DNA of 64,000 bases, taken from the IMG/VR virus record IMGVR_UViG_3300030330_005655, positions 1 through 64,000 of that record; one strand, 5' to 3'. Position 1 is the first letter of the stretch. Every line of letters begins with the position of its first letter. The notes beneath the pieces were generated by a model. It worked only from the letters and a program-made list of their open reading frames with translations, made no database searches and was not told the DNA's origin. Below, piece by piece: positions 9,075 through 64,000 of this stretch. The position numbers and the translations under genes are program-made. The stretch is from a virus (Duplodnaviria > Caudoviricetes).

Positions 9075-10537
9075 TGAAGCTTGAAAAACTTCAAGACCTA
9101 GCTTCAGAAAGGGCCGTGCTTGCGGCTCTTTGTCAGTATGGGCTTGACTGTTATCTGGATGTAGACTTTATAGATTCTGATCATTTCACAGATGAAATGA
9201 ATCAGTTGTTGTTTAGCTGTATACATAAAACAATTTCAGAAAACAATAAGGTTGAGTTAGCCTCTATCTTATCATCAGCAAATTCCTTGGGTGTTGCCGA
9301 CGTTCTGTCAACAAAAGAAGAGATAGGATTTATAAGATCTCTTTTTAATTTTCCTGTACATAAAGAAAATGCGCAGTCACATGCGGCAAAAGTAGCTAAA
9401 CTAAAACTGGCTAGGGATCTACATAAGACATTATCATCTTGTCAAAAAAATGTATCTTCCATAACGGGAGAAGAAGAAATTGTAGATTTGATATCTATGG
9501 TTGAATCTCCTATTTTGGATGCCACGTCAGACATATATCAAACATCAAACAACAAGACAGAGATTATTGGCGATGATATAGATGATTATCTAGACTATCT
9601 TTGCGATAATGTTTCAGATTTTGTTGGTATACCTACTGGATTTTCTAGATACGATGCCGCTATTGGCGGTGGTCTAAGAAGAAAATGTGTTGATCTAATA
9701 GCTGCTCGACCAAAGGTGGGTAAATCAATGTTCGCTGATGCCGTTGCTCTCAATATATCTAGCCAAAACGTTCCTGTTCTTGTTTTAGATACGGAGATGA
9801 GCAAAGACGACCATCTAAATAGAATATTGGCGAGTATCAGTGGTGTTGATATCAATAAGATATCTACCGGTAAATTTTCTGAAACTGAGATAGATAAAGA
9901 AAAAGTTCGTCAGGCTTCTGAAAAATTAAAAGACATACCATATCACTATATTAGTATAGCAGGGCAGTCTTTTGAAAACATATTATCTATTATGAGAAAA
10001 TGGATATACCAACATGTTGGATTTGACGAAGAAGGTAGAACGAATGATTGTGTGATAATCTATGATTACTTAAAGCTAATGAGTTCAGATGGCATCAGCG
10101 CCTCAATGCAGGAATATCAGGTATTGGGTTTTCAAATTACTAAACTTCATAACTTCATGGTTAAGTATGATGTTCCCTGCCTAAGTTTTGTTCAGTTGAA
10201 TAGGGACGGCATAACAAAAGAATCAACAGATGTTGTTTCTGGATCTGATAGGCTTATATGGCTATGTACAAGTTTTACTATTTTTAAGTTAAAGTCAGAG
10301 GAAGAAAAAGCTGAAGACAATCAGCAAAATGGTAATAGAAAACTAGTACCTGTTGTTGCTAGGCATGGGCAGGGATTAGATGATGGTGATTATATAAGCA
10401 TGAAAATGTTTGGAAGTATTGGGAGACTAGAAGAGGGTCTTACCAGAAATGAAATACATAATAGCGCAAAAGCGAGAGAAGAAGGATTTGAAATAGATGA
10501 AAGCATTGACTCAGAATCAGATATCAGCGGCGTGTGA
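9074..10537 (+). CDS. dnaB: Replicative DNA helicase
   Basis: SERAVL, GIPTGF, AARPKVGKS, DTEM, IYDYL, QLNR; ATG 9074 overlaps upstream TAA. Confidence 0.93.
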   Translation: MKLEKLQDLASERAVLAALCQYGLDCYLDVDFIDSDHFTDEMNQLLFSCIHKTISENNKVELASILSSANSLGVADVLSTKEEIGFIRSLFNFPVHKENAQSHAAKVAKLKLARDLHKTLSSCQKNVSSITGEEEIVDLISMVESPILDATSDIYQTSNNKTEIIGDDIDDYLDYLCDNVSDFVGIPTGFSRYDAAIGGGLRRKCVDLIAARPKVGKSMFADAVALNISSQNVPVLVLDTEMSKDDHLNRILASISGVDINKISTGKFSETEIDKEKVRQASEKLKDIPYHYISIAGQSFENILSIMRKWIYQHVGFDEEGRTNDCVIIYDYLKLMSSDGISASMQEYQVLGFQITKLHNFMVKYDVPCLSFVQLNRDGITKESTDVVSGSDRLIWLCTSFTIFKLKSEEEKAEDNQQNGNRKLVPVVARHGQGLDDGDYISMKMFGSIGRLEEGLTRNEIHNSAKAREEGFEIDESIDSESDISGV

Positions 10538-11519
10538 TGCTCTTTCTGATAAAATTCCAGAAGTTCTGGAAAGGTTAGGGATTGATGATTATGAAGAGCA
10601 TCCTAATAGGTATGCTTTTCCCTGTCCGATACACGGCGGCGACAAAGAAGACGGATGCACTATATACACAGACTCAGAATCTGTAGTTGGCAACTGGCAA
10701 TGCTGGACAGCAGGATGTCATCACGACCATGTAAATAATATATTTGGATTTATAAGAGCCTGCTTGGGCGCAAAAAAAGGATCTCCGGCAACACTAAATG
10801 AAACTTATGAGTTTTGCTCAAGCATAAAAAAACCAACCAACAAGAGATCAAATCATGACGATATTGGTACTCAGTGCAAGCTTACAGACGTATTTTTAAA
10901 AACTTCTAAAAAAAGCGAACAGAGTATAGATAGAGATACTATAAAAAAATCTTTAAATATACCTTCTAAATATTACTTAGATAGAGGCTTTTCTAAAGAA
11001 GTTCTTGAAACCTTTGATGTTGGTGACTGTTTAGACGCAAGCAAGCCTATGGCTAATAGAGCAGTTGTTCCAATATATGATGGCTATGGCTTGTATGTAG
11101 CTTGCGTTGGCAGATCAATTAATGACAAAATAAAACCAAAATGGCTCAACAGCAAAGGCTTTAAAAAAGATTATCTTTATGGGTTGAATATTGCCAAAGA
11201 AGCCATAATAAAGAGCAGGACAGCTTTTATACTTGAGGGGCAGGGCGATGTCTGGAGAATGCATGAGGCTGGATATAAAAATTCAATAAGCATATTTGGA
11301 TCTGCAATAAATGAAAATCAGTTAGTAATACTAGAAGAGCTTGGAGTAATGAATCTAGTAGTGCTTACAGACTATGATGATGCTGGAGAAAAAGCAGCTA
11401 AACAGATAATAAAAAAATGTGGCAGAAGATTTAACTACACAAGACCAAAACTTGACACTAAGGACGTGGGCGACATGTCTATACAGTCGCTTCAAAAAGA
11501 ACTTTCTTTACAAATATAG
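10497..11519 (+). CDS. dnaG: DNA primase (CHC2 Zn finger + TOPRIM)
   Basis: CPIH...CWTAGC; YLDRG; KWLNS; LYG; EGQGD; DYDDAG. Confidence 0.92.
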   Translation: MKALTQNQISAACDALSDKIPEVLERLGIDDYEEHPNRYAFPCPIHGGDKEDGCTIYTDSESVVGNWQCWTAGCHHDHVNNIFGFIRACLGAKKGSPATLNETYEFCSSIKKPTNKRSNHDDIGTQCKLTDVFLKTSKKSEQSIDRDTIKKSLNIPSKYYLDRGFSKEVLETFDVGDCLDASKPMANRAVVPIYDGYGLYVACVGRSINDKIKPKWLNSKGFKKDYLYGLNIAKEAIIKSRTAFILEGQGDVWRMHEAGYKNSISIFGSAINENQLVILEELGVMNLVVLTDYDDAGEKAAKQIIKKCGRRFNYTRPKLDTKDVGDMSIQSLQKELSLQI

Positions 11520-41967: not shown

Positions 41968-42655
41968 AATTAATATCTTTGGCAATCAGTGTTTTCTGTA
42001 TTTGTTTTTTAATTTCTTTTATTACATTTTTTGAATCCTCGCTAGTAGGATGCCCCGCAGCATTATTGGGATGAGCAACGGTAACAGTCTGATTATTAGA
42101 ATTGAATGGATTATATTTTTCAAACAGGTGATGGTAAAAGTATCCTTCTGAACTATTTGCAACTCCGTAAAAATCTACTCGTCTGACATTACTAGCGCAA
42201 CAAGATATAAAGCCAGAAGCTGTGTGTGAACTGGTGCAGTGATGACCTTTTATTAAAGTTGTGAAGTTAGGATCTTCACACGATTCGTGGCTGTTTAAAT
42301 TGTGAACAATCGCATAAGTTTTTTTACAGTTAGCGGAAAATAACTCTAATGCTTGTTTATAAGTGTGTCCAGATCTACTGGTAAGTCGCGGAACGACTAC
42401 ATACTTTAAATCTTTTAATTTTTCTGAAACCATGTTATTAGAAATATCTTGAGCAATATCGAAATCATTTAATACTAATGCGTCTATATGATCACTATAA
42501 AATATGGCTTGATTAATTGCCACGTTCAATGTGGTTTCATTATTACTTTCGATAGGCTTGAATGTTGGCCCCTTGCCTAGTATTATAGCGCTATCGTACC
42601 TTTCCATTTTTTTGATGATAGTGGGAATATTTCTTTTTGTTATAATTTTAATCAT
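41960..42655 (-). CDS. Sialyltransferase/Maf-like Rossmann-type glycosyltransferase
   Basis: AIILGKGPT, VAINQA, LND, TSS.TA...VDFYGV. Confidence 0.5.
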   Translation of the reverse strand: MIKIITKRNIPTIIKKMERYDSAIILGKGPTFKPIESNNETTLNVAINQAIFYSDHIDALVLNDFDIAQDISNNMVSEKLKDLKYVVVPRLTSRSGHTYKQALELFSANCKKTYAIVHNLNSHESCEDPNFTTLIKGHHCTSSHTASGFISCCASNVRRVDFYGVANSSEGYFYHHLFEKYNPFNSNNQTVTVAHPNNAAGHPTSEDSKNVIKEIKKQIQKTLIAKDINFN

Positions 42656-49191: not shown

Positions 49192-52100
49192 TTATTCGTA
49201 ATCTTCACAATCAATAAGTGGTATTTTGGTGGGTTCAAGTTTACAGCAATCCCAAATTCTAACCGTGTGTCTACCAAACTCTAAATTAGATCCCACAACA
49301 GCGGCGCTGGTTATAACATTTATATCTCTGTAATGGTCAAAGTATATTACAACCCACTTGCACTCATTGCCGTTTTCAACAAGCATGGCAACACCCTGTC
49401 CCGCAACTTCGTTTTGCAATCTCGGCCCACCTCCGATACCCCCACCTTCCCAGAAAAACTGCATATCATCATAAACCTGAATTGTTCCATCTTCTGCTGC
49501 GTATGGAACATGATCGCATCCACAAAGCTTGTGTACAATATGACCAGTTTGAGGACTGCTCGCATCGCCAGTCTTTGGACATTCAATATCACAATTGACA
49601 TCTTTAGAGCCTCTGATATCAAAAATAACCAACCTGCACTGATTTTGCTTTAATGGTATCCACTCATAATTTTGCCGAACGCATACAATCCACTGGGGCG
49701 GATCTTTCAGAAGCAGAGAAAAATTAGTATCTCTGTTGTATCCGGTAATTATTTCTCCATCTACAACTAGATTGTCGTCACCCTTAGTGGCTGGATCAGG
49801 ATCATCTTTTCTTGCCACCTCTACCTGAAATGTTGTAGGCTCATTCCAAGCGTCGGGCGCTGTTATATCACTTTTAAGCAATCCAACTATAAACTCATGA
49901 CCGCCAGACCAGATTTTTCTTTCGGCATCCCACATTAGGTTTATAGGGCCGGTTTCCCAGTGTCTTCTGTTGCCAGCAGCACCCTGATCAAAAGCTCCAC
50001 CACCAGTGGCACTCATGTCATTTGGAACAGGGTTAGCCGCCAAGTCATAGCCCCAACCAGAAAGAACCATCGGCCCCCTAAAGCCAACACTTCTAACAAT
50101 ATCAGACACGTTATTATTTAAATGGTGCTGTAGGTTGTCTGGATTTGAACTGCCATGAATACTAGAGTGATAATCGCTTTGCCTTAAAAACTCTTGTCCA
50201 TTATCCCCATCTTGATAAAGCTCATAAGGAAAATAAGGATCTAACTCTTCCGAAGAAGGATATATGCTCTGATCTTTAAATCTTTGTCCTTGTTCGTCAG
50301 TTACCGCAACGCTTTCTATCTCTGGATGAGTTGTTGAGCCATCGGGCTTTTCTGTTTGTGTTTGGTAAGGAGAAAAAATCTGCTCTTGAGTAGCACCAAA
50401 AGATTGGCTATATTTTGAAAGAGCCAAGCCATACAAATCACTAACATCTATCATTGCACCTTCAACGGCATATCCAGTATCCCCGTAAGCTTGAAAGTTT
50501 TGTGGGAATTCATCGTTTGGAGCAGTACCATCATACGCGCTAAACATAATCGCAGTTCCGTTTCCACGATTTCTTCTATATCTTTCGTCTATATCATCAA
50601 GATTAAATTCGCCAGCAGGATAAGGATTGAAACCTCTTTTTATAATCTGCTGACGTATTCTTTGAAGCGCATCCAATGTGGCTTTATAAATTCTACTGAG
50701 CCTGTCCGCATTGTACTTAGCCAGCTTTCCAAAGTTTGGAGTCCAAGTATTAAATTGATAAGTAGTATACATGCCGCTTGTGTCTATACTACAACTAAGA
50801 TTTGTAATGTAAGGACCAAGGCTGGTAAATCTATCTGCTATATTAAAGGCTGGCTTTGATGCAAGCCTCATGCTTCCAGACTCATTTTCAATAACCTGCG
50901 CATTTCCAGCGCGAGCATAAGAAGCGCCAATTTCATTCAAGGCTTGAAAACTACCAAAGTTTTCTGGAGCTAAAGATGTATCAAAAACAACTTCAGATTT
51001 TCCATTTGTAGCACCTTCAACAAAGTTATACCACGGACCCCAACAAAACTTTTGACTTTCTTGAGGAACCCCAATGGCAATCGGGTGCTTCAAATCTGGA
51101 GGAACTTGTATCTGTAATAATTCTTTACCAGCACCAATCATCGACTCCAAATTAACATCTGCGTCGAAGTGGTATTTAACAAGCGGAAGCAATCCCAAGT
51201 GAGGCGTGGTGTCAAAGGCATCTATAACACCTCCACCTCTAGCATCGCCAACACGATCCATAAGTGCTGTCTGCGCATAGTTTCTAATCTGAACACCACA
51301 ATCCCAAACTATACAAGGAAGACCTTCTCCACCACCCAAGTCATACCAGAAAACAGTGTCGGTGGCAGGACCGCCTTTTGTTGTGAAAACTCCGTCCTGT
51401 CCAGTAGCACCAGCGTTTGCTGGAGACCATCGGGCATAATCTTGCTGAAGCGCACTATAGTCATAAAAATTAGAATTTGCATATATTTGACCACTTTTTA
51501 ATCTGCCATTAGAGTCGTAAGCCGCTATGTCGTCAACAAGAGGAAGCTCTATGTAGGCAGAGTCAACCGTTTTCCAAGAAGGAACTTGTGTAAGTGGATT
51601 ATCGAAAAGTCCTTGATTAACTCCATCGTCCTCGTTCAGATACTTTAGGTTGTTATCTCTTCCTCCCGGCTCTTCTGGAACAGGAACTACAAACTTTTGT
51701 CTATAGAAATTTTCGGCACATTTAGAAACACCCCTCCAGATGGTGTCAACCTGATGAGCAGCAAAAGATCTATTTGCATTATATGCGTTATTAGCGGTGT
51801 GAAGGCTAGTGGCCGCAAACGCCAAGTTGCCTACAGCGTAAAGCAGGAACTGATCTAGTATGTCTTCAGTAAACTCAAACCCAACACACCAAGGGTCTTG
51901 ATCAAAAGTTCCAGCCGCAATGGATTCTACAACCTTAAATGCCTGCCAAGACTCTTTTCCGCCTAAAGCCATTCTTATTTCTGCTACAGTGGCTATGTAT
52001 CCGGGATTAAAGGAAGACTCATCAAGCATAACCTGAACACTATTTCCGGGCAGATATGCAAGAGGAGCAGTAACCGGATTACCAGCAAAATCGCGACTAA

Positions 52101-54369
52101 TTATCCATCTGCCAGCACCGTCTTTACCCCAAACAGGAACACATTGCTCTATAGGACAATACCACCATCGAGAAGCAGGGGCGCCAATGATTAATTTTTG
52201 AACAACTTCATCTGAAAGCTCTTGACCAACAGAATAAGAAATCAAGCTTTCACCTCTGTTCGCCTCCACATAATCAGATACCACTCCAAGTTGTGGTTGT
52301 TGCGTTCTGTCAACAAGCTTAGTGAGTATAATAGGAGGGTTTCTTTCCTGTCCAAACGTTGGCGAATCGGCTTCATTGTCTATATCTAAAACCCATTCAT
52401 CGTTTATATCTAAAACATAGCCAATAGGACCGCCACCTTCGGGTAACTCAATAATGTCGTCGGTAGGTATTACAGTTACATAATAATTATGCTGTATAAG
52501 CTCACAACATTCTTCAATAACATTAGAAATTGTGGTTGTTTGTCCTGCAATTCTAAAGTTGTTGTATTCAGGTGTTTCAACTATATCTCTAATCGCAGTT
52601 ATGTCTAACCTGTACCTGCTTTGCCCGAAAGATATAGGATCTCCAAAATTAGATTTTCCATAGGACATATTTTCCAAGATTTCTAAAAGTCTTGGGGCAG
52701 GGAATCCTGCCGAGTTTGTTCTAGCCTTTCCAAAATGACCACTTTCTCCAACGGGTTCTGTAAACCTTTCATCCCCAGCAAGCCAGTAATTTTCTTCATG
52801 TGCTAAAGCGTTCCATATATTTCTCATTTGCTGATTATTTTCAGTACCCTTGCAAGGGAACCCATTTGAATCAATAGCAAATATAGGATTATTAACTTTT
52901 GCATCATCATTTATATTACCATCCCCATCTAAACCTTCTGCGGGATTTAGGGGATTTCCTATGCAGCCTTCAGACTCGCGAACAGACACAGGAGAAAAAA
53001 TATCGGATTGCGTGTAAGGTATTTCTCTGTAATCATGACCAAAACTATTACCATCGGCAGCGCCCTGATCCCAGTTAAAACTTGTTCCGTCAAAATTAGA
53101 AAGTATTACGTTTACACCATTTAATACTTTGCCGCCCGGAGACTCTAATATAACATCATATTTTTTTCCGGCGGTGCTTTCATTTAAAGTAAACCTTTGA
53201 AAAACACCACCAAAATAAAACTGACCATATTTAAAATAACACGCAGTTCCAACCTGCGGAGGATTAAACACAACAGGTCTTCTAACTCCGTCAATTGGAT
53301 CTATTTCAGTAGTATCAGGATCTTCGACCAGTGTTAATTGACAAGAGCCTCCTTGAGAACCCCAAGTAGCACTAGACTCAAATTTTTCAACATAGCAACC
53401 AAACATCATGGGTGTTGGGGTACAGTCTTTTACAAATGTCTGAACCATAAAGTCCATTTTTTTTGTAACGACTTCATACTTTGATAGATCGTTTGGCGAC
53501 CAAGTTACTGTCAAGATAGCATCTTCACAAAGCTCCGTTCCAACAGGAGGATCAAACCTAAAAGCTCCTAAATCGCTTATATCTTGACCAGTTGTGGGAT
53601 CTATTACACTCATGCAATACTCTTCCCCGTCACCCTCCGCTAAGGTGTGTGGGAAAACTTGTTCCACTTCGCCCTCACAAGGAAGTCTTGTTTCACACTC
53701 GCCAGAATGTTGCAAACACTCCCAATCTATAAATGGGGTTACACAAACATCTTCTCGTATTTTAATAATTTTAATACTGGAAGTTTTTTCAGTAGTACGA
53801 TAGGTCGCTGTATCATCTGGAACAAATGTGGCAGTCACTTCTGTTGTTTCGCAAAGCTCTGTGCCAGCGGGAGGGCTGAAGGTCAAAGTACCCGGAACTA
53901 CTTCACCGGTATTAGGATCGGTAACAGTAACCTGATCTAGCTCTTGTTGAGAATTTAATATATAAAAAGTTGTAGTTACCAAACCCCGGCAATCTATCTC
54001 TTCTAGACACAATCCAAGATAGCCAGAAAGATTAAAATTAATTCTTGGAGTTTTACAAGAGTCGCTATTAACAATTCTTACTCTTAGATTTTGAACCTTA
54101 GATGCAGAATTATAAGCAGAAGGGTCTGTGGGTGTAAAAGTAGCAGTTATATCGGTATCTGCACAAATTGAAGCCCCAGCCGCTGGCGAATAAGCAAACG
54201 AGCCTTCAACGGTATCTCCAGTATTAGGATCTCTGGCTACTGCATTTAATTCATTTAAAGAGTTTATTACGTAGGAGGTTTGAGTAACCGCCCCTGCGCA
54301 ATTAGTAACCTTTGAGCAAGTTCCTTCGTACTCTGATAAATCCCATTTTATAACTGGTGTTTTCGGCAT
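49192..54369 (-). CDS. Large tail/baseplate protein with three N-terminal Ig-like repeats
   Basis: ~1725 aa acidic; repeats TP.I.W...DP.TG..V.G.F..SP..G..C....ATF.P.D...Y; downstream of tape measure; start ATG 54369 avoids overlap with upstream gene. Confidence 0.7.
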   Translation of the reverse strand: MPKTPVIKWDLSEYEGTCSKVTNCAGAVTQTSYVINSLNELNAVARDPNTGDTVEGSFAYSPAAGASICADTDITATFTPTDPSAYNSASKVQNLRVRIVNSDSCKTPRINFNLSGYLGLCLEEIDCRGLVTTTFYILNSQQELDQVTVTDPNTGEVVPGTLTFSPPAGTELCETTEVTATFVPDDTATYRTTEKTSSIKIIKIREDVCVTPFIDWECLQHSGECETRLPCEGEVEQVFPHTLAEGDGEEYCMSVIDPTTGQDISDLGAFRFDPPVGTELCEDAILTVTWSPNDLSKYEVVTKKMDFMVQTFVKDCTPTPMMFGCYVEKFESSATWGSQGGSCQLTLVEDPDTTEIDPIDGVRRPVVFNPPQVGTACYFKYGQFYFGGVFQRFTLNESTAGKKYDVILESPGGKVLNGVNVILSNFDGTSFNWDQGAADGNSFGHDYREIPYTQSDIFSPVSVRESEGCIGNPLNPAEGLDGDGNINDDAKVNNPIFAIDSNGFPCKGTENNQQMRNIWNALAHEENYWLAGDERFTEPVGESGHFGKARTNSAGFPAPRLLEILENMSYGKSNFGDPISFGQSRYRLDITAIRDIVETPEYNNFRIAGQTTTISNVIEECCELIQHNYYVTVIPTDDIIELPEGGGPIGYVLDINDEWVLDIDNEADSPTFGQERNPPIILTKLVDRTQQPQLGVVSDYVEANRGESLISYSVGQELSDEVVQKLIIGAPASRWWYCPIEQCVPVWGKDGAGRWIISRDFAGNPVTAPLAYLPGNSVQVMLDESSFNPGYIATVAEIRMALGGKESWQAFKVVESIAAGTFDQDPWCVGFEFTEDILDQFLLYAVGNLAFAATSLHTANNAYNANRSFAAHQVDTIWRGVSKCAENFYRQKFVVPVPEEPGGRDNNLKYLNEDDGVNQGLFDNPLTQVPSWKTVDSAYIELPLVDDIAAYDSNGRLKSGQIYANSNFYDYSALQQDYARWSPANAGATGQDGVFTTKGGPATDTVFWYDLGGGEGLPCIVWDCGVQIRNYAQTALMDRVGDARGGGVIDAFDTTPHLGLLPLVKYHFDADVNLESMIGAGKELLQIQVPPDLKHPIAIGVPQESQKFCWGPWYNFVEGATNGKSEVVFDTSLAPENFGSFQALNEIGASYARAGNAQVIENESGSMRLASKPAFNIADRFTSLGPYITNLSCSIDTSGMYTTYQFNTWTPNFGKLAKYNADRLSRIYKATLDALQRIRQQIIKRGFNPYPAGEFNLDDIDERYRRNRGNGTAIMFSAYDGTAPNDEFPQNFQAYGDTGYAVEGAMIDVSDLYGLALSKYSQSFGATQEQIFSPYQTQTEKPDGSTTHPEIESVAVTDEQGQRFKDQSIYPSSEELDPYFPYELYQDGDNGQEFLRQSDYHSSIHGSSNPDNLQHHLNNNVSDIVRSVGFRGPMVLSGWGYDLAANPVPNDMSATGGGAFDQGAAGNRRHWETGPINLMWDAERKIWSGGHEFIVGLLKSDITAPDAWNEPTTFQVEVARKDDPDPATKGDDNLVVDGEIITGYNRDTNFSLLLKDPPQWIVCVRQNYEWIPLKQNQCRLVIFDIRGSKDVNCDIECPKTGDASSPQTGHIVHKLCGCDHVPYAAEDGTIQVYDDMQFFWEGGGIGGGPRLQNEVAGQGVAMLVENGNECKWVVIYFDHYRDINVITSAAVVGSNLEFGRHTVRIWDCCKLEPTKIPLIDCEDYE
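53422..54363 (-). repeat. Three tandem ~104-aa Ig-like repeats with 4 conserved Cys each
   Basis: Visible alignment of three units in the translation. Confidence 0.8.
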
Positions 54370-54377
54370 GTTGTTTC

Positions 54378-56006
54378 CTATTCGGTCGTTAGTGGCATAG
54401 CGTCCCAACTTTCAGAAAGATTGTAAACCCTTGTTGAAGGATTCCAGCTTTCTGTAAAGCTTTTGCACTGCGCGTTATCGGCTGTAGGTCTGTATGGTTC
54501 TGATAGCGTTTGACCGTTGGGCTTGCCAAAGCCTCTAGCCATAGTCAGATCAACTGTTATGTTTGTATTAAAAATTGGAGTTGTTTCAAAGTTTTGAATA
54601 ACTGGACCGTCCTGCTTTCCCAAAACCTGTATAACAGCATATACGTCAACGATGCCATACTGATTAGAGTATGACACATTAATACTTTCTGATATAGATC
54701 CTTCAACAGAAGCCTCTCTGTCATTATAGGTCGCAGAATAAGTTATAACACCACCTGTTTTATTAACACCAACAGATTCATTAACCACTTGCGTACTTAA
54801 AGTGCCAGCCCCGCCGCCGGTTCTATAAACCTCTTCCGCTAAAGTGATCAAGGTAGGTCTCATCAAATCAAAAGCTCGTTTAGCATTATCATATTTAGAT
54901 ATGCTAGTAATACTTGATGTATTATAATCTAACCCATTGATAGTTGCATTTATGTTAACAGTAGTAAATGGCTGGTCTTGCTGTGCTTCATAAGAAGCCT
55001 CTATAACATGATTGGCGAAAAAGTTTTCTTGAGACAAAAGCCAAGTGTCTGTAACCTCATAACTTCCAGCCGATTGATCAGACTTTACAACCCTAACATG
55101 ATTAAATGCATCATAAACAATTAGCCCTGCACCGCCATCGCCAGACAAACTAAACCCAAGCTCGTCAGAAGCTTCAGGCTTGTTCATTTCTATAGGCAAA
55201 AACGTACTTTGAAAAAATGTAGTATCGCCCATCAAGTCTTCTGTTATAGCAACCGTTGGGTCATTCACAAGTCTGGTAGAAACCCACTGAACAGCCTGTC
55301 TAAAAGCCTCGCCGTCGTCTTCTAAGGATGTGGGGTCTTCGTATTTTTTTAAACCCTTTGCGGTAACGGTGTGTGACAAACTGTAGGTTTTATGCATAAC
55401 ATTTTCAGCGCTGTCATAAACACCCCCTTGAAAAAAAATACCATCATTTTGATTAAGATCCCAATTTTCAGAAACAGACTCCAGCAAATACGTTGGATCA
55501 GCTTTAGCCAGTGTATCAATATTTGTGCCAACAGACTCTTCTTGGTATGCCTCAAAAACAAAGTTATACTCAAAATTTTGAACACCAGCAGAATTTTCCT
55601 GCTGCTCTGGAAGATCAACAGAAACAAGTCTAGCATCCTTGTAAATTATAATATTGTCCAAGCCATTATAAGGCTGTATTTCTAATTTACCAGTACCCTG
55701 ATTAGGAAAAATGTTCCTAATAAACTGCATGGTTTTTATAAGATCGCCCTGAATAGTTGACTGCCTTTGACCCTTTTCTGTTATGTCTTGATTAGGTTGT
55801 GCGCTGTCTATCGTGGCGGTTCCGGTAACATTTATGGTGAACTTGGAATTTACATATGTTCCATCTCCGGTAGATATTATTTCTCTTGATATAGAGTATC
55901 TAGGCATTGGCCCAGACAATCCGGTATCGCCAGTGGCTCTGTTTACAGAAGAAACACCACCTATTACTAAAACTTTGCTGTCTTGGTTGGTTTGAAAAAC
56001 TATCAT
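54378..56006 (-). CDS. Putative tail/baseplate structural protein
   Basis: 542 aa acidic, beta-rich; two genes downstream of tape measure. Confidence 0.55.
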   Translation of the reverse strand: MIVFQTNQDSKVLVIGGVSSVNRATGDTGLSGPMPRYSISREIISTGDGTYVNSKFTINVTGTATIDSAQPNQDITEKGQRQSTIQGDLIKTMQFIRNIFPNQGTGKLEIQPYNGLDNIIIYKDARLVSVDLPEQQENSAGVQNFEYNFVFEAYQEESVGTNIDTLAKADPTYLLESVSENWDLNQNDGIFFQGGVYDSAENVMHKTYSLSHTVTAKGLKKYEDPTSLEDDGEAFRQAVQWVSTRLVNDPTVAITEDLMGDTTFFQSTFLPIEMNKPEASDELGFSLSGDGGAGLIVYDAFNHVRVVKSDQSAGSYEVTDTWLLSQENFFANHVIEASYEAQQDQPFTTVNINATINGLDYNTSSITSISKYDNAKRAFDLMRPTLITLAEEVYRTGGGAGTLSTQVVNESVGVNKTGGVITYSATYNDREASVEGSISESINVSYSNQYGIVDVYAVIQVLGKQDGPVIQNFETTPIFNTNITVDLTMARGFGKPNGQTLSEPYRPTADNAQCKSFTESWNPSTRVYNLSESWDAMPLTTE

Positions 56007-56671
56007 TATTCAGAAAAACCTCTTGTAAAGATATTCAATGTTTTTGTTTCTGGGGCTTTGATTATCAGATCCAAACCAGAGGCTTGAACAAAAACACCAC
56101 TTGTGTATAAATCGACATTGTTATTAACAGCATTAGAACGAACAAACAAATTCACATTGCCTTCAGCATTAAAGCTACCATATGGATTTTCTATATACAA
56201 AGGCATATTGTTATTATCTATTGAATTAGACCTTATATGCAAATTTATATTATTATTTTTTCTAAAGAAGATACCATCAGCAGAAGCAACATCACCACTA
56301 ATAAACGCCGTTATTGTGCCGGAAGAAGTAAGGTTGCTGATTGGAGCTTGAAGGAACAATGGGGCCGTTCCAGAGGCTTCAAACTTTCTATCGGTTGGCG
56401 TTATGAATAAAGAAACATCGCCACTAGCTGTAGATCTAGCTCCCACAATATTCAAATCAGCAGTATTATTTACAACATCGCCGCTACCACTAGGTTGAGC
56501 AAATTTATCATTTTGTATAAAAAGAGACATGACGCCGGTGGGAAAACTGTTGATGATCACCAACGGCATTGTTTTTTCTTCTGTCGCCCCGCGAATATAC
56601 GAGTTTATCGAACCGCTGTGAGGAACAGGGCCAGATATAAAAAGGCTCGTATTAGCGTTGTGAGTAGCCAA
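56006..56671 (-). CDS. Putative virion protein with repeated (SG)x(M/L)xL(F/Y)I beta motifs
   Basis: About a dozen SLFI/PLYI/NLFV/DLYT repeats; TTG start with AGGAG upstream. Confidence 0.55.
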   Translation of the reverse strand: MATHNANTSLFISGPVPHSGSINSYIRGATEEKTMPLVIINSFPTGVMSLFIQNDKFAQPSGSGDVVNNTADLNIVGARSTASGDVSLFITPTDRKFEASGTAPLFLQAPISNLTSSGTITAFISGDVASADGIFFRKNNNINLHIRSNSIDNNNMPLYIENPYGSFNAEGNVNLFVRSNAVNNNVDLYTSGVFVQASGLDLIIKAPETKTLNIFTRGFSE

Positions 56672-56683
56672 TCCTAAAAACTC

Positions 56684-59600
56684 CTAAGCTATAAATCTAG
56701 AATTATTTTGATCAATCATTGCAGCAACTTCTTGTCCTACAAACTCTCCTATAAACTGACTAAGTTCATTTTTGATAAGTTCAATATTTAATCCTTGCAG
56801 GTTTAATCCGCCTTGAACATTCACAGTGTGTGTGAACTGGAAACCGTTTGCAAAAAGCGCTGCGGCATCGCTCATCTTGGTTATTAGCGGATCGAAAGAA
56901 CTAATCGCACCGGCAAAAGCGTCGGTTATACCGCCAATAAAACCAGAAAATACACCCTCAATCTGTCCTGTGTCTATTGCGAACATGCCACCGCCAGTGC
57001 CTTCTCTGCCGCCGCTTCCTTGGTTGCGGTAAACTGGCCCACCTTTGTTGTAGCCCGGAACTTGGCCCCTGTTCAAACTTTTCATAAATCCAACACCATA
57101 TTTGTCTACGGTGTTTGAATTCATTACAAACTCTCCGGGCGTGAGCATTGCTGGCACAGTGTCTTGATTAGAGCCGCCATTTCTAAAGTAAGAAGGAACG
57201 AGACCGCCTTTAGCATAGTGATATGGAAATAAAGGCATAGCTTGGTACATGTTGTATAAATCTATATTTTTAAACTCATGATTAGTTTTTATTGCCGCAA
57301 ATCTTGCTCTTGCTTTATCAATAAGTTTATTAAATTCAATCCTAACATCGTCGTCAATATTACCAGCACCGTCCATGATTGGATCGCCAAGATGGGAAAA
57401 CGTTCTTTTTCCTGTTCTGAAGTTCCTTTTAAAATGAGCGCTCATTAAATTTGATGATGGAAATTGACCAGTAGCACCAACATGCCGTGCAATCTCTTCT
57501 ACTAGGGCAAGCTCAGTGTATTCTTTGTCATCGGGTGGTCCAAGATAGTCTACAGACCTATCTAATAGATTTCTTACACCCTGCGGAAGCCGTTCTTTTA
57601 GTGCTATTGCTTTCTTTTTGCCTTTGAGCGTTAGTCCGCTTGGAACAGGTTGTTGAGCTTCGATTCCCCTAAGTATTTGTCTAGCTCGTTCTCCCATTGG
57701 TCCGGGCTGCATAGCCATTGCTTGCAGTTGAGCCATATTGTTGAACCGATTCGTCGAATCGTATCTCCGATTGATACCCTCCACACCCATGCCTCGCATA
57801 TTGTTGATAGCCTCGCTACCCATATTCATTAAACCTTGACCGGGAATTCCACCCGGACCACCCGAAAACGCACCCATGTCGGTCATGATTGGGTTGCCAT
57901 ATATATCGTAGTTGGAGAACCCATAGCCACCAAATTGTGCATATCGACCACCGCTATAAGCAGCCCTAGGTATGCCCATATTGCCGTATCTTGTGCCGCC
58001 CATGTTTCGCATGTATCCACTTATGCCGCCACCAAATTGACGGTAAACAGGACCGCCTTTGGCATATCCTAAAATACGATAATATTTTCTAGCAAGATTC
58101 AAACTGTCTTTTGACAGGCTGCCCTGTGGAACTCCTACCGTTGATCCATCGGCTTTTTCTAGATTTAAAATTGCATTTCCGCTACCGGCGCCGCTTATAC
58201 CTCTATATCTAGCCTGCGTTGAATGTTCGCCCGTGACATTTGTCCATGTTTCAAGTCGATCTATACCAAGCCCTTGAAGAGAAGCGTTTTGTAATGATGA
58301 TATGTATGATGGGCCGGGATCTGGACGAAGGTCTTCATAAGGAACTTGGACTAGTGCCGCAGCGCGTGCCGCAGCGCCTTTTAAAAAGCCTCCAACAGCC
58401 GAAATGCCAGCACCAAGATTACCCCTAGCAGTATCAAAATTACTTTTAAAATTAGAATAACCAGTTTTAGCAGCATCTATAGCAGTTCTACCAGCCCCAA
58501 TCAAATCAGCTAATCCAAACTTCGGTTCTACGGAAGGCGACTGGAAGCCTGTCATCATAGGCTCTCTTCTACGTTCTTTCGGCTGAACCATTCGAGGATA
58601 TGGCGCGTCTGGATTTAACCGATCAAAATCCGCATCACTCATCATCGGAGGCATAAAGCTTGGAGAAACCCCTCCGATGGGTGTACTTATGTCAAGCAGC
58701 CCAGAAACATCAACGATAGGGAAATCTTTCAAAATGGCTGGGTCGGCTCTTCGGGGGGTTGGAGCGGTCGGGGTGCGCAGTCTTCTTTTAATAAATCTGT
58801 TTGGACCCTCTAAGGGAAAATTAGCCCCAAATGTATTAGCCATGCCAGCCAAAAAGTTGTGTACAAACATAGCAATACCCGAATGATCATCAGCAAAACC
58901 CGAACGATCACCAGCAAACTGCCCCGGATATCCTCCCGCTCTAATATCTGGATCTGGATGGCCTGAAGTGTAAACACCGGGAGCTACGCGCGTTCCCAAA
59001 TAGACAGGAGCGCTGGGTTGAACGCGCCGAAAGCTTCCATCAGCAGTAGCGCTACCGATAGTTCCTCGACCACCGCCGCTACCACCAATGGTTCTTACAG
59101 GCACATCGCCTACATGAGTACTTGAGTTCTTTTTACGGTTTTGCCATTCCGAATACTCTTGTGGGGTATTCCGTTGATGCCACATACTTGCTTGCTGTAT
59201 AGTTCTTGCCCCTATAGCAGTTATTTTGTTAGCAGGAAGTCCGGTGTGCTTATGATAAGGTAGACCGTCACTAGGAGTCTCTCCACCCATATGTCTATAA
59301 ACAACACTTCCACCCCTATTCAAAGCCGCCAAATTATCAGCACCAATCTTATCAACAGCAGACTTTCTTATAACAAACTCGCCCGGAGTTAACATAGCAG
59401 GAACAGTATCAGTGCCTTTGGGCTTGAATATAGTGCCACCATTTTTTCTATACTGAACCAATCCACCCCTAGCATTTCCTTGCGCTTCTTGGTCGCCTCC
59501 CGGCTGGTTTGCCGCAGCTTTTCTAGCCATAACCATTTCTTGAGTAAGCTTGGTTACTTCATCGGCAAGCTTGACATTCGCCTCTATCAATTGCTCTTCT

Positions 59601-62600
59601 TTTGTTGTTGCTTGAGCCAACTGTTCGGCTACTCTTGGATCAAGCCCCATGCGAATCGCATCACGAATAACAAGCTCTTGCTTTATTTCTTTTCCTGTAA
59701 AGCCGCCAACAAGCTCAACATCTGCAAGCCTATCAAGCAACCCCACGGTGTTTTGTCTTTGTTCAGGAGTTTGATTTTGAAGTGTTCCTGTGGCAAAAGC
59801 AAAATTCACACCACGAAAAGCCATCATTAAATCTTTTCTGGCGTCTTTACCACCAACAACAAAATCCTCAACAACATCAAGCATAGCAGCGCGTTTTGAT
59901 CTTTCATCTTCAATAAGGGCTATGTTTGCCTCCATCTCTTCAAATATACCAGTGGCCCTTTCTCCTTGGTTTGCCATTCTTTCAAGTTCGTTTGTGGTTA
60001 CGTCAATAACCTTCTGCATTTTATCTTGGCGAGCAATCAATTCTTTTGTTGCCCTGCCCGCATTTATTTCTTCTGCTATTCTTTGTCTAGTGGCTATGGC
60101 GGCCTGCCTACTAACTGCAATTTGTTGTAGATTTCCTGCTTCTAGCTGCTTGCCAGTAGGGTCTTGAAATCCTTGAAGATTAGCCTGAGCAACAACCCTT
60201 TCTCTTCTATCTTTAACCTTTCTGTCCAAAGGCTCTGCTTCAAATTCTGAATCTCTTGATCTGGAAACTAAATCTTGTGCTTGTTTTCTTAAATCTGCAC
60301 CTTCAAAAATTGTTTGAATTTCTGCCTGTTTTTGCTCTAGCTCTTTTTGTCTAAGGGTTTCTCTTGCATTTAAGAATGATTGATAATTATTAATATCCTT
60401 TTGACTTAAACCAACAAGTCTATTTATTGACTCTGCTTGTTTTTTAGCCAGTTCTTCCACTGGAGCAAATATGCTTTGCAAAGCTTCTTCTGTTATTCTT
60501 CCGCCTTGGGCGGCTTCTCTCAAACTTTTTCCTACATTATTGAAAAGCTCTTGACCAAAAGGCCCAAGTTGTTCGGGAGTTAGCCCCAAGCTTCTAAGTA
60601 TAACATCTGCATTTACAGGATCGCTACCAAAGTTTTTACCCAAAAGATCTCTTCTTGCATTTTGCAAAACAGTAGCAGAAGTTAAAAGCTGATCTCCAAC
60701 CTTTTGTGCGGCAGGCCCAAAGCTTGAAGTAATACTGTCAACTTGAGCTATAAACTTTTTAGGGTCTTGAATTCTACCAATATTATCTATTTCATCAACA
60801 CCACGAACCTCTGCTTTAAGAGCTTGGTTTTCAATTACAGCAGTATAGTTTTCTATAGCTTTTGCTTGATTTTCCAAAGCTTGTTCTTGCAGCGACAAGG
60901 CACTCAAAAACTTGTCGGCTTCAGCAACGGCTTTTGTAAGAGCTATAGTGGCTTTTCTTTGTTCATCTTCTGCTTTTCTTAATGTTCTCGCAGTGTCTGC
61001 TTGTCTTTTTATACCTTCAGCCAAGTCTCTTACTTTTTGATTCGCAGCGTTTGTAAGCTTGGTGTTTTGTTCTAAAATGCTATTAGCGGCGTTGGTCAAT
61101 GCGGCCTTTTCATCCTCGGTTTTCGCCGCTCTTGCCTGAGCCTGCAACGATGCCGCTTCAGCCTGATTTTTCGCCACCAACAAAGCAAGCTCTGCCTGAG
61201 TTGCGGCTTTTACCTGATTAAAAGCCTGAGCAACTAATCCGCTACCATTAATTAATTCATCAAACGTTTGCTCGCCGGTGATTTCAACACTTGCAGCATC
61301 TTGCAATGTTTTCACAGAAGCTTCGGCAGCTTGACTAGCGGCCTCTAAAGAAGCGCTTAATCTTAATTGATTTACTTCCACAATAGCGGCAATCGAAGCA
61401 TTGTCTTCAAAGTCTTCTTTCTTTAATTGACTTACGGCTTTTCCAGCGTTCATTGCTTGAGCCGCTAACTGGTGTAAAGCCTCTTTGCCTTGTTTGCTAG
61501 CACCAGCACTAATCAAATCTCCTTGAGCTTGAAGCCTTCTGTTGACTCTACCCTCTGGAGTTGCAGCAAGCTCTGCGGCTTCCATAGCGTCTTTAAAATT
61601 ATTACTAGCTTGAGTAATCTGGGTAAGACCTTCAATAGATTCTTTTATAGTTTGTGTGTGTCTTTGCTGTTCTGCTATAGCTTCTTCTTGTGCAGAACTA
61701 TACACCAAATAACCAACACCAGCACCGACTAAAGCACCAACCAAAGTACCAACAACCGGAACTACACTACCTAAAGCAGCACCCGCAGCAGCAGCAGCAC
61801 CAGCAGCAGCTAATCCACTACCAACAGCAGCAGCAGCGCCAGCCGTTCCAGCGCTTGAAAATGAAGCAGACTGATCTCTAAAAGCCACTTCCGAAAGTTT
61901 TGCAGTAGTTAAGGTTTCTGCACTAGCACCACTTTCCAGACCTTCTTTGAAAATTTTTGCTTGGGCATCAGCGCTTGCTTTCGCTTGAGCAGATAAATAT
62001 TTAAACACAACCATAACAGCAGTAGCAGCAAGAGCCACCCCACCCAAAGTCCCAGCAAGACCTGCGCCCGCCGCATTTTTACTCGCAAGAGCTTCTGCTT
62101 CATCAGAAGCCGCAGCATTTAAGCTAGCTTTAGCTTCAGCAGATTTAGCAGCAACCAAGGTGGCGCTAGCAAATACATCTAAAAAAGTACCACCTACTCC
62201 AACTAACGTTGCAACAAATGTACTCGTTTCATTGATAGCCTGCTTTGTTTCTTCACTCAAGCCACTCATTTGGGCTGTTACAGCGGCAGCAGCACTAGTT
62301 AAAAATATAAAGCTTTGTGCGGCTTGGGCTGGCCCTTTTAGTTTTTCAGCAGCGCCGCCTGCTGATCCAACTGCGCCGGATAGCGTATTCACACCAGCAG
62401 ATCTAAAGTTTTCACGACCTTTCGCAAGTCTGCCTTTTACAAAACCGCCAGCAGCCGCAGGTGTGCTAGCAGCTTTATTAAGAGCGTTGCGAACTTTTGC
62501 CCTTACTGTGTTATTTTCTTTTCTCGACTTGATAGTTTCTTGTATTTCTTTCTTTTCCCGCTGTCTTATTCCATTAGTCTCGGTTATTTGTCTTTCAGTT

Positions 62601-64000
62601 TCTTTTCTTGCCTTGTCTGTAGCGGCAATAGAACTTCCAGTCTTTTTTAGTTCGTCTTGATAAGCCTTTTCAACTTTAGACATGTCAACATTAGCACTTC
62701 CAGCGACACTCTGTTGAAAATCTGAAGCTAAATTTCCCTCTTTCCCACCAAGGATGGAAGCAACTGGTGCGCCAATCTCTGGGCGTGCGCCAGCCATACC
62801 CCTTGTACCTTCAAAGCCCTCTGCCCCCTTCAAAATTCCAGCGCCTTGAACACTAGCCGCGCCTTTTTCATAGGCTCTTGTCATTTTTCCTGAGCCGTCC
62901 TTTAAATCTTTTTCAGCTATTTGCATAGCCGCAGCTAAATCATTACCTTCCAACCCAAGAACTTCAAAATTTCTTCGTACCTTTTCTAATTGTTTAGCGA
63001 GACTGTCAGCCGGTCCCTTGATCAGTCCCGGATTAAATGCTCTTAATTCAACGCCAGAACCTCCAGCGGGAGTTCCATTTCCATACGTGTATCTTCCAGC
63101 AGTAACTATACCGCCAGCAGCATATCCACGAACCCCGCCCTGATTCATTTTCTTGAGATTACTATAACCTATACTTTGCGCCGCGCTTTTATTGAATACA
63201 AATTCGCCGGGAGTCAACAAAGCTGGAACAGTATCTGAGCCACTAATTCCACCACCTTTAGCGCGCCTTTCCATTCTAGAATATGGACCAGCGGCTGCCG
63301 AAAGCTCTCTAGACGCTCTTTGTCTATTCATAGCGTTGCCTTGATCATCTTCAAATCTTACAGCAGAAACTCTTCTGGTAGCCCTAGCTAAAAGACTTCT
63401 TTTTCCGCCAAAAGCTGTCATCAACGCTTCGCCAACATCTGCTCTTATAACATCTGCATCCGTGTCTAAATTCTTTCTTGTTTTTATATTATTAGCAAAG
63501 CTTTTAGCTATAGTTCCTTTATTTGCACTTAACTCTTTAAAAGCTGGAGAAGCTTTACCACCAGTCAATCTATAAGCACTACCTTTACTTAAAAGGCTAT
63601 TAAATATATCGCCGCCTTTTGCTTTTATATACCTTTTTAATATAGTGCCTGTAGTGCCTGCTTTGTTTTTTAAGTTCCAGTCTCTATTCCAGTTCATTGG
63701 CAGATCAACACCAACACTAGAATAAAGCTGTCTTATCTGTCTATTTTTTTCTTTAGCAGCAAAGGCTCTGGCAGAACCAGAAGTGTTAAGCTTGTCTAAG
63801 TGAGCAAACTCTGTGTCTAGAGTGGGTGTCAATTTTTTAAATTCTCTAGCAGACTGTGTTTTAACATCCTTTTTTGAAACAGCGCGAGTGCTGCCTCTTT
63901 GAAACCTATTTTGATTCATTGCCGCAAGAGTATTAGCACCCAAACTTTTTACGCTACTTTTCTTTATAACAAACTCGCCGGGGGTAAGCATTGCCGGAAC
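56684..64000 (-). CDS. Tail tape-measure-like protein, 5'-truncated
   Basis: >2435 aa; Ala/Gly hydrophobic segments at ~61695-62315, long coiled coil, four DTVPA(M/L)LTPGEFV motifs; frame open to 64000 (VPAMLTPGEF). Confidence 0.85.
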   Translation of the reverse strand, partial: VPAMLTPGEFVIKKSSVKSLGANTLAAMNQNRFQRGSTRAVSKKDVKTQSAREFKKLTPTLDTEFAHLDKLNTSGSARAFAAKEKNRQIRQLYSSVGVDLPMNWNRDWNLKNKAGTTGTILKRYIKAKGGDIFNSLLSKGSAYRLTGGKASPAFKELSANKGTIAKSFANNIKTRKNLDTDADVIRADVGEALMTAFGGKRSLLARATRRVSAVRFEDDQGNAMNRQRASRELSAAAGPYSRMERRAKGGGISGSDTVPALLTPGEFVFNKSAAQSIGYSNLKKMNQGGVRGYAAGGIVTAGRYTYGNGTPAGGSGVELRAFNPGLIKGPADSLAKQLEKVRRNFEVLGLEGNDLAAAMQIAEKDLKDGSGKMTRAYEKGAASVQGAGILKGAEGFEGTRGMAGARPEIGAPVASILGGKEGNLASDFQQSVAGSANVDMSKVEKAYQDELKKTGSSIAATDKARKETERQITETNGIRQREKKEIQETIKSRKENNTVRAKVRNALNKAASTPAAAGGFVKGRLAKGRENFRSAGVNTLSGAVGSAGGAAEKLKGPAQAAQSFIFLTSAAAAVTAQMSGLSEETKQAINETSTFVATLVGVGGTFLDVFASATLVAAKSAEAKASLNAAASDEAEALASKNAAGAGLAGTLGGVALAATAVMVVFKYLSAQAKASADAQAKIFKEGLESGASAETLTTAKLSEVAFRDQSASFSSAGTAGAAAAVGSGLAAAGAAAAAGAALGSVVPVVGTLVGALVGAGVGYLVYSSAQEEAIAEQQRHTQTIKESIEGLTQITQASNNFKDAMEAAELAATPEGRVNRRLQAQGDLISAGASKQGKEALHQLAAQAMNAGKAVSQLKKEDFEDNASIAAIVEVNQLRLSASLEAASQAAEASVKTLQDAASVEITGEQTFDELINGSGLVAQAFNQVKAATQAELALLVAKNQAEAASLQAQARAAKTEDEKAALTNAANSILEQNTKLTNAANQKVRDLAEGIKRQADTARTLRKAEDEQRKATIALTKAVAEADKFLSALSLQEQALENQAKAIENYTAVIENQALKAEVRGVDEIDNIGRIQDPKKFIAQVDSITSSFGPAAQKVGDQLLTSATVLQNARRDLLGKNFGSDPVNADVILRSLGLTPEQLGPFGQELFNNVGKSLREAAQGGRITEEALQSIFAPVEELAKKQAESINRLVGLSQKDINNYQSFLNARETLRQKELEQKQAEIQTIFEGADLRKQAQDLVSRSRDSEFEAEPLDRKVKDRRERVVAQANLQGFQDPTGKQLEAGNLQQIAVSRQAAIATRQRIAEEINAGRATKELIARQDKMQKVIDVTTNELERMANQGERATGIFEEMEANIALIEDERSKRAAMLDVVEDFVVGGKDARKDLMMAFRGVNFAFATGTLQNQTPEQRQNTVGLLDRLADVELVGGFTGKEIKQELVIRDAIRMGLDPRVAEQLAQATTKEEQLIEANVKLADEVTKLTQEMVMARKAAANQPGGDQEAQGNARGGLVQYRKNGGTIFKPKGTDTVPAMLTPGEFVIRKSAVDKIGADNLAALNRGGSVVYRHMGGETPSDGLPYHKHTGLPANKITAIGARTIQQASMWHQRNTPQEYSEWQNRKKNSSTHVGDVPVRTIGGSGGGRGTIGSATADGSFRRVQPSAPVYLGTRVAPGVYTSGHPDPDIRAGGYPGQFAGDRSGFADDHSGIAMFVHNFLAGMANTFGANFPLEGPNRFIKRRLRTPTAPTPRRADPAILKDFPIVDVSGLLDISTPIGGVSPSFMPPMMSDADFDRLNPDAPYPRMVQPKERRREPMMTGFQSPSVEPKFGLADLIGAGRTAIDAAKTGYSNFKSNFDTARGNLGAGISAVGGFLKGAAARAAALVQVPYEDLRPDPGPSYISSLQNASLQGLGIDRLETWTNVTGEHSTQARYRGISGAGSGNAILNLEKADGSTVGVPQGSLSKDSLNLARKYYRILGYAKGGPVYRQFGGGISGYMRNMGGTRYGNMGIPRAAYSGGRYAQFGGYGFSNYDIYGNPIMTDMGAFSGGPGGIPGQGLMNMGSEAINNMRGMGVEGINRRYDSTNRFNNMAQLQAMAMQPGPMGERARQILRGIEAQQPVPSGLTLKGKKKAIALKERLPQGVRNLLDRSVDYLGPPDDKEYTELALVEEIARHVGATGQFPSSNLMSAHFKRNFRTGKRTFSHLGDPIMDGAGNIDDDVRIEFNKLIDKARARFAAIKTNHEFKNIDLYNMYQAMPLFPYHYAKGGLVPSYFRNGGSNQDTVPAMLTPGEFVMNSNTVDKYGVGFMKSLNRGQVPGYNKGGPVYRNQGSGGREGTGGGMFAIDTGQIEGVFSGFIGGITDAFAGAISSFDPLITKMSDAAALFANGFQFTHTVNVQGGLNLQGLNIELIKNELSQFIGEFVGQEVAAMIDQNNSRFIA

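Follow-up and report, generated by a model that had tools for sequence, protein, structure and literature searches.

A repeated junction module at candidate seams of cassette exchange in a giant phage tape measure protein

In this article, I will discuss a 64,000-nucleotide stretch of virus DNA (the window, bases 1-64000 of a 95,489-bp IMG/VR virus record with a CheckV completeness of ~62%) and the gene within it for a very large tail tape measure protein (TMP), which is punctuated by four copies of one short module at which related phages have exchanged the intervening segments. An open reading frame (ORF) on the minus strand has its stop at window position 56684 and remains open through the window edge, where it is cut; the full gene (L003:684-9446, minus strand) extends to record base 65446 and encodes a protein of 2,920 aa, called P0002 here. 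The part inside the window (56684..64000, minus strand) covers aa 483-2920 and leaves the TMP domain, aa 93-397, outside. In a scan of the full protein these residues match PF10145 (E 1.5e-25, 90.7 bits vs a cutoff of 33.2) and TIGR01760 (E 1.9e-29), and because of these two matches at the N-domain P0002 can be taken as a genuine TMP of the TP901/TIGR01760 type. The particle to which it belongs is an uncultivated large siphovirus-type phage. Neither megablast nor tblastn against cultured phages found a close cultured relative, the only tblastn matches being to the N-domain, at 23-27% identity, in SPbeta yomI and Enterocloster phages, and a PDB search with the whole of P0002 returned noise only.

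P0002 has four exact matches to D[TS]VPA[ML]LTPGEFV, beginning at aa 481, 738, 2013 and 2762 (window positions 63908-64000, truncated at the window edge, 63137-63235, 59312-59410 and 57065-57163), together with GG strings at aa 766-778, 1990-2003, 2042-2055, 2461-2473, 2744-2758 and 2799-2811 and a seventh, RFARGG, just beyond the window end. When 139 units from P0002 and its relatives are aligned, the repeat resolves into a module of ~75 aa, consisting of a first element, [RKG][FY][AN]xGGxV, most commonly 10 aa ahead of the core; the core D-T-V-P-A-M-L-T-P-G-E-F-V, followed by a helix that closes on a near-invariant Asn; and a second element, [FY][AN]xGGxV, 32-41 aa past the core Asp. All four junction modules are read from the minus strand: module 1 (63836..64000, cut by the window end; aa 457-537) has a FARGG element, the DTVPAMLTPGEFV core and a helix ending in MNQN; module 2 (63059..63277; aa 724-796) has RAKGG, DTVPALLTPGEFV and YAAGG; module 3 (59261..59485; aa 1988-2062) has NARGG..RKNGG, DTVPAMLTPGEFV and NRGG..HMGG; and module 4 (56993..57241; aa 2736-2818), the positional equivalent of aa 731-799 of lambda gpH, has YAKGG..RNGG, DTVPAMLTPGEFV and YNKGG. 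Gly runs precede modules 1 and 2, and one orphan GG element, YAKGGPV at aa 2461, stands without a core. An earlier note on this DNA had pointed to four DTVPA(M/L)LTPGEFV copies and to a recurring paired GG motif, and both are borne out, the positions of the former agreeing and all six listed strings of the latter being present. Each copy matches the module profile at E ~1e-25, a circular figure because the profile was built from those same four copies; chance is excluded on better grounds, namely that independent relatives from metagenomes have their four copies laid out in the same way and that the module was recovered in a search of a whole library, described below. The copies match no model in Pfam-A or NCBIfam, and PHROG tape-measure profiles cover the module. 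AlphaFold2 (AF2) modelled the module alone, from the 139-sequence alignment, as a single helix with a predicted local distance difference test score (pLDDT) of 61.6, which is not a confident fold.

The stretches that the modules separate differ greatly from one another. Variable segment A (63278..63835, minus strand; aa 538-723), with an isoelectric point (pI) of 10.7, holds most of a ~140-aa unit that I call module X (63446-63865, minus strand; aa 528-667), recognizable by the conserved strings PTEF[AT]H, DLPxxWNR[DN]W and YRxTG, whose homologues lie solely inside giant TMPs and always directly behind module 1; searches among proteins of 121-2000 aa found no homologue of segment A or module X, free-standing or mid-size. 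Segment A has no Pfam, PHROG or usable ESM Atlas match, and its AF2 model, made with 4 sequences, is unusable (pLDDT 33.6). The conserved core (59486..63058, minus strand; aa 797-1987) comprises a charged Gly/Ala-rich part, three hydrophobic, membrane-like stretches (aa 1077-1099, 1128-1153 and 1211-1249; window 61700-62218) and a long Ala/Glu-rich part (aa 1260-1990) that is kept in relatives and is probably helical; it is ~35% identical to the cores of relatives, and the alignment stops at aa 2055-2061, inside module 3. Variable segment C (57242..59260, minus strand; aa 2063-2735) runs from a Pro-rich part (segC1, 10% Pro) through an SHD1-like stretch (58082-58261, minus strand; aa 2396-2455), the orphan GG element YAKGGPVYRQFGG (58028-58066, minus strand; aa 2461-2473) and a Gly/Met/Tyr-rich part (21% Gly, 10% Met and 6% Tyr over aa 2470-2600) to a last part of ~145 aa, and, the SHD1 stretch excepted, neither 150 giant TMPs nor 80 loci contain a homologue of it. 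Scanned with Pfam and PHROG, segments A, C and D gave only this weak SHD1 match (PF03983, 15.6-17.8 bits vs a cutoff of 23.7, E 0.003-0.014); the stretch aligns at E 6e-10 to the relative L025, whose SHD1 scores 37.4 bits, above the Pfam cutoff, and in both proteins a GG element comes after it. The chain ends in a conserved acidic tail (56687..56992, minus strand; aa 2819-2920; pI 4.1), which is conserved in 20 giant TMPs and 7 loci and which, if lambda gpHC and the Douge TMP C-terminus are a guide, probably docks in the tail tip, where C-terminal parts of TMPs form trimers (PMC10721106, PMC13033339). The segments as described in the earlier note thus stand as regards composition, whereas the term 'globular' finds no backing for segment A in its AF2 model and the SHD1 of P0002 stays below the Pfam cutoff.

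The strongest result of the analysis is that the modules are seams of exchange, as is directly supported by comparisons between closely related phages. The DNA of L005 and that of L008 agree at 98.9% up to TMP aa ~519 and at 98.2% from aa ~720 to 2048, and in the stretch between modules 1 and 2 their DNA similarity is undetectable and protein identity is 14-40%, one breakpoint falling late in module 1 and the other early in module 2. L062 and L068 are 97% identical through module 1, after which L062 carries a block of ~200 aa that is missing from L068, this indel lying exactly between MN[RK]YAGGG and [IV]K[RS]FA[TR]GG; identity between these two falls from about 80% to about 20% right after an isolated GG element (FALGGLV / YAQGGVV) and recovers at module 2. 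Identity likewise drops just past modules 1, 2 and 3 in the pairs L027/L035 and L021/L024. When P0002 itself is compared with its four nearest relatives, homology comes in three blocks: the first covers aa 1-518 (with three relatives) or 1-570 (with one) at 62-75% identity, the second starts at about 900/1030, stops at 2055/2061 and has ~35% identity, and the third, which aligns with three relatives, reaches from 2744/2753 to the C-terminus at 43-50%, so that the limits fall inside modules 1, 3 and 4, and nothing in these relatives aligns with segments A and C. Across the family, 1,511 of 2,273 ends of high-scoring segment pairs lie just past full modules, against about 82 expected, a pile-up that is partly trivial after module 1 because the conserved N-domain stops there, and that is not used here as proof of recombination. 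The earlier suggestion that the repeats are recombination cassettes is therefore upheld by the L005/L008 replacement, the L062/L068 indel and the homology limits of P0002; aligning the relatives, as had been proposed, shows that the segments between motifs are not invariant and that swaps occur at modules or orphan GG elements, except in the L005/L008 zone at aa ~2024-2480. As a separate observation, just downstream of the TMP gene L008 has ~900 bases more than L005 (L008:12813-13976 vs L005:12888-13079) between flanks of 92-94% identity, so that the tail module has another variable spot here.

How widespread is the module? Its profile was searched against 1.84 billion cluster representatives and matched 28,626 of them at E<=1e-3; for 1,502 the match reaches E<=1e-30, a score that implies at least two copies. 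The top 150 matches are 1,026-7,872 aa long (149 of them longer than 2,100 aa) and carry 3-11 copies each, with longer proteins having more of them (r=0.82; one per ~700 aa), the first copy lying at about aa 457-527 and the last ending about 105-160 aa short of the C-terminus. At the upper end, P0003 (7,794 aa) and P0004 (7,872 aa) have 9-11 copies (11 and 10 by one count, 10 and 9 by another) separated by mutually dissimilar stretches of ~1,000-1,240 aa, and if the whole chain were ruler their tails would exceed 1 micrometre. Of the sequences in the PDB, lambda gpH has a single copy of the module (aa 731-799 of 853; 8iyk_H, E 2.6e-5), mycobacteriophage Douge gp16 has two (aa 962-1013 and 1412-1462) and 8rk3 gives a weak match; in lambda and Douge the module lies outside the parts that were built in the structures (aa 818-849 only for lambda, aa 1658-1699 only for Douge). 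As far as the literature was searched, which is not proof of absence, neither the module nor delimiter-bounded exchange in TMPs has been described.

If segments are exchanged, it is natural to ask what they carry, and here the relatives are more informative than P0002. Of 61 inter-module segments from relatives that were scanned with Pfam, about ten have a domain and about 50 have none. The close relative L029 (N-domain E 1e-177, C-tail E 4e-18) has a probable ADP-ribosyltransferase directly ahead of module 2: PF03496 scores 25.2 bits vs a cutoff of 23.4 when the segment is scanned alone and 20.2 bits, below cutoff, in the whole protein; PF01129 likewise passes its cutoff on the segment alone and falls below it on the whole protein; the segment has STS and ExE motifs and an ESM Atlas score of 0.96 to ADP-ribosyltransferase families; and a PDB sequence search with it gave no match. 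A HAD acid phosphatase (E 7.6e-14) lies between modules in L087, a PF10145 TMP, an SHD1 domain does so in L025, and L077, which is not confirmed as a TMP, has two LysM domains with weak SLT and NlpC/P60 matches. Judged from these domain matches, cargo is real in the family, and P0002 itself has no assignable insert function beyond the SHD1-like stretch; the cargo proposed in the earlier note is accordingly found in relatives, as a probable ADP-ribosyltransferase, a HAD phosphatase and SHD1, and not as an assignable enzyme in the inserts of P0002, for whose phage the phrase 'effector-delivery system' is best offered as a hypothesis. Motif searching of the giant TMPs gave a further observation, since HExxH occurs somewhere in 41 of 151 of them, in some cases inside inter-module segments, as MHEKLH in segment C of L005 (ORF aa ~2161) and of L008 (aa ~2152), and as a common string, LYHE[LM]THQ, in three others (L037 aa 1023, L053 aa 1147 and L065 aa 2140); these stretches could be embedded metallopeptidases.

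Whether such cargo would ever leave the chain brings us to cleavage. Lambda gpH sheds a C-terminal piece of ~14 kDa from its Gly-rich region after tail assembly, an event known from gels, with the site and the protease unmapped (PMC12617516). A mass calculation places the cut that would give a gpH* of ~78-79 kDa at aa ~710-725, that is, in the Gly run at 705-721 and 10-25 aa ahead of FATGG at 733, and gpHC would therefore be essentially the module plus the tip-binding helix. By analogy, the chain of P0002 may be cut near its modules after tail assembly, freeing the inserts; no Pfam protease was found in P0002.

Putting these observations together, the reading that I favour, and which I consider fairly probable, is that a conserved TMP backbone is broken by two lineage-specific inserts, that every junction is a copy of the module, that the modules are tolerated seams, and that the inserts are ejected and perhaps cut free. 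The backbone would consist of the N-terminal TMP domain, the core with its membrane-like and long, probably helical parts, and the C-terminal tail, probably docking in the tip, with segments A and C as the inserts that break it. Each junction between backbone and insert would be the ~75-aa module, made of a GG element, the DTVPAMLTPGEFV core with its helix and a second GG element, the same module with which the C-terminal fragment cut from lambda gpH begins. With such tolerated seams recombinants would remain functional, the inserts would ride inside the tail with the TMP and exit at infection, and, if lambda is a guide, a cut near the modules after tail assembly would release them. A number of points weigh against this reading. 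The inserts of P0002 contain no recognisable enzyme by Pfam or PHROG, or by ESM Atlas for segment A. The L005/L008 zone at aa ~2024-2480 varies without bounding modules, homology ends at orphan GG elements are only twofold enriched across the family and are not independent, which makes this a weak signal, and breakpoints at modules may merely reflect that these are the sole conserved stretches of DNA. As for cleavage, the module alone has no confident AF2 fold and is therefore unlikely to be a self-contained autoprotease domain; the lambda copy has no D[TS] in its core, which is therefore not a universal cleavage chemistry; P0002 has no HExxH; and the 95-kb record has no JAB (lambda gpK-like) or NlpC/P60 match, which at ~62% completeness is not proof of absence.

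Several of these points would be equally at home in a rival explanation, possible if rather unlikely, in which the module is a structural node only, required at intervals along a very long ruler, for instance to clamp oligomers or to touch the tube lumen or the tip. The inserts would then be ordinary, fast-evolving ruler spacer, with no cleavage and no cargo function, and breakpoints would map to the modules only because no other DNA is conserved. The increase in copies with length noted above would suit such a node, as would the lack of an own fold, which is expected if folding needs an oligomer or a partner, the roughly 50 of 61 inserts without a Pfam domain, and the trimerisation of TMP C-terminal parts in the tip (PMC10721106, PMC13033339). 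It is difficult, however, to see an ADP-ribosyltransferase, a HAD phosphatase, SHD1 or LysM (the last in L077, not confirmed as a TMP) between modules as ruler-like, near-identical phages differ by the presence or absence of blocks of ~200 aa, and lambda cuts its TMP beside the module. Going in the other direction, one could extend the favoured reading and regard the module as a general reusable seam of long-tailed phages, at once a site of cutting after tail assembly, which would explain the conversion of gpH to gpH*, and a swap junction for passenger segments; giant TMPs would then be polyproteins of polymorphic content, built for delivery, from which enzymes (ADP-ribosyltransferases, for example) enter the cell before the DNA does. 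I consider this extension rather unlikely.

The repeats might also have arisen in other ways. TMPs lengthen by internal duplication, so the motif could be the best-kept part of ruler units that were duplicated in tandem to lengthen the tail, and the successive spacings of ~1,000-1,250 aa in giant members are what one would look for; this origin is nevertheless very improbable and was rejected, self-BLAST finding no large internal duplication. There is no BLAST similarity among the inter-module segments within P0002, P0003 (7,794 aa) or P0005 (5,762 aa), and the repeats are therefore not the remnant of a recent tandem duplication; the spacings from module to module in P0002 are very unequal (186, 1,191 and 673 aa); and the copies are position-specific across phages, since in a tree of the units they group by ordinal position, with 19 label changes vs about 70 when labels are shuffled. 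The four copies are thus old, position-specific paralogues, of which the module alone has been retained. That the whole arrangement is an artefact of assembly or gene calling, a chimeric contig or fused genes, has a probability close to nil: the contig is derived from a metagenome and the virus has no cultured relative, but the frame is open for 2,920 codons, and L005, L008, L010, L029 and further relatives, each from a metagenome of its own, repeat the four modules without a change in order.

The surroundings of the gene are less readily interpreted. It belongs to a same-strand block of large ORFs, of 221, 542 and 1,738 aa downstream and 306 and 125 aa upstream, and none of the seven genes neighbouring it has a Pfam or PHROG match. 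From their position, the three downstream ORFs (window 49192-56671, minus strand), which are among those without a Pfam or PHROG match, presumably encode undescribed kinds of distal tail, hub and fibre protein, and the ORFs of 125 and 306 aa directly upstream, which overlap by 11 bases and lie outside the window (record bases 65515-66802; L003:9515-10435 and 10425-10802, minus strand), could by position be a tail assembly chaperone pair, again without a Pfam or PHROG match. Further along, at about window position 42000, the GC skew flips sign and the coding strand changes from plus to minus; here a block with many short genes on the plus strand gives way to the minus-strand block with the tail genes.

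Looking beyond tails, polymorphic toxins use a short conserved motif (VENN in CdiA, DPxGL in Rhs) to mark the seam at which cassettes are exchanged, and in Rhs this is also the site of self-cleavage. The module resembles them in being a conserved motif at the seam of variable cassettes, and differs in that the families are unrelated, that P0002 has several seams per chain and that no immunity gene was seen. The nearest phage parallel is lambda gpH, which has the same module (Gly-rich stretch, FATGG, core, YATGG) near its C-terminus, as P0002 has module 4, and which is cut in the Gly-rich zone just ahead of it (PMC12617516), but which, unlike the 2,920-aa P0002 with four copies and two large inserts, has a single copy in 853 aa and a core without D[TS]VPA. 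Douge gp16 also carries the module, in two copies. TMPs with internal muralytic domains are established (PMC9024508; Piuri and Hatfull, 2006, as cited in PMC9024508), and the domains embedded in Douge gp16, TM4, T5 pb2 and P1 Sit are cell-wall enzymes, whereas those in relatives of P0002 are an ADP-ribosyltransferase, a HAD phosphatase and SHD1; delimiter-bounded exchange is not described for these four TMPs. Effectors of the Sle1 type from actinobacterial contractile injection systems (PMC13277306) are alike in general plan, in that a TMP-like scaffold with an exchangeable domain is packed in the tube and ejected, and unlike in that they are not phage rulers, have one C-terminal functional domain and are not reported to have the GG/DTVPA module.

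TMPs are usually viewed as rulers, sometimes with a cell-wall enzyme, and a very common module without a Pfam family that marks seams of exchange, gain and loss suggests a route by which long-tailed phages could deliver proteins together with the tape measure. It would also give a concrete and testable candidate for the position of the lambda gpH cut, and a rule, taken from nature, for designing tape measures that carry passengers. Embedded domains and mosaicism were known already in TMPs; what is new, as far as the literature was searched, is a conserved, repeated seam module with exact cassette exchange.

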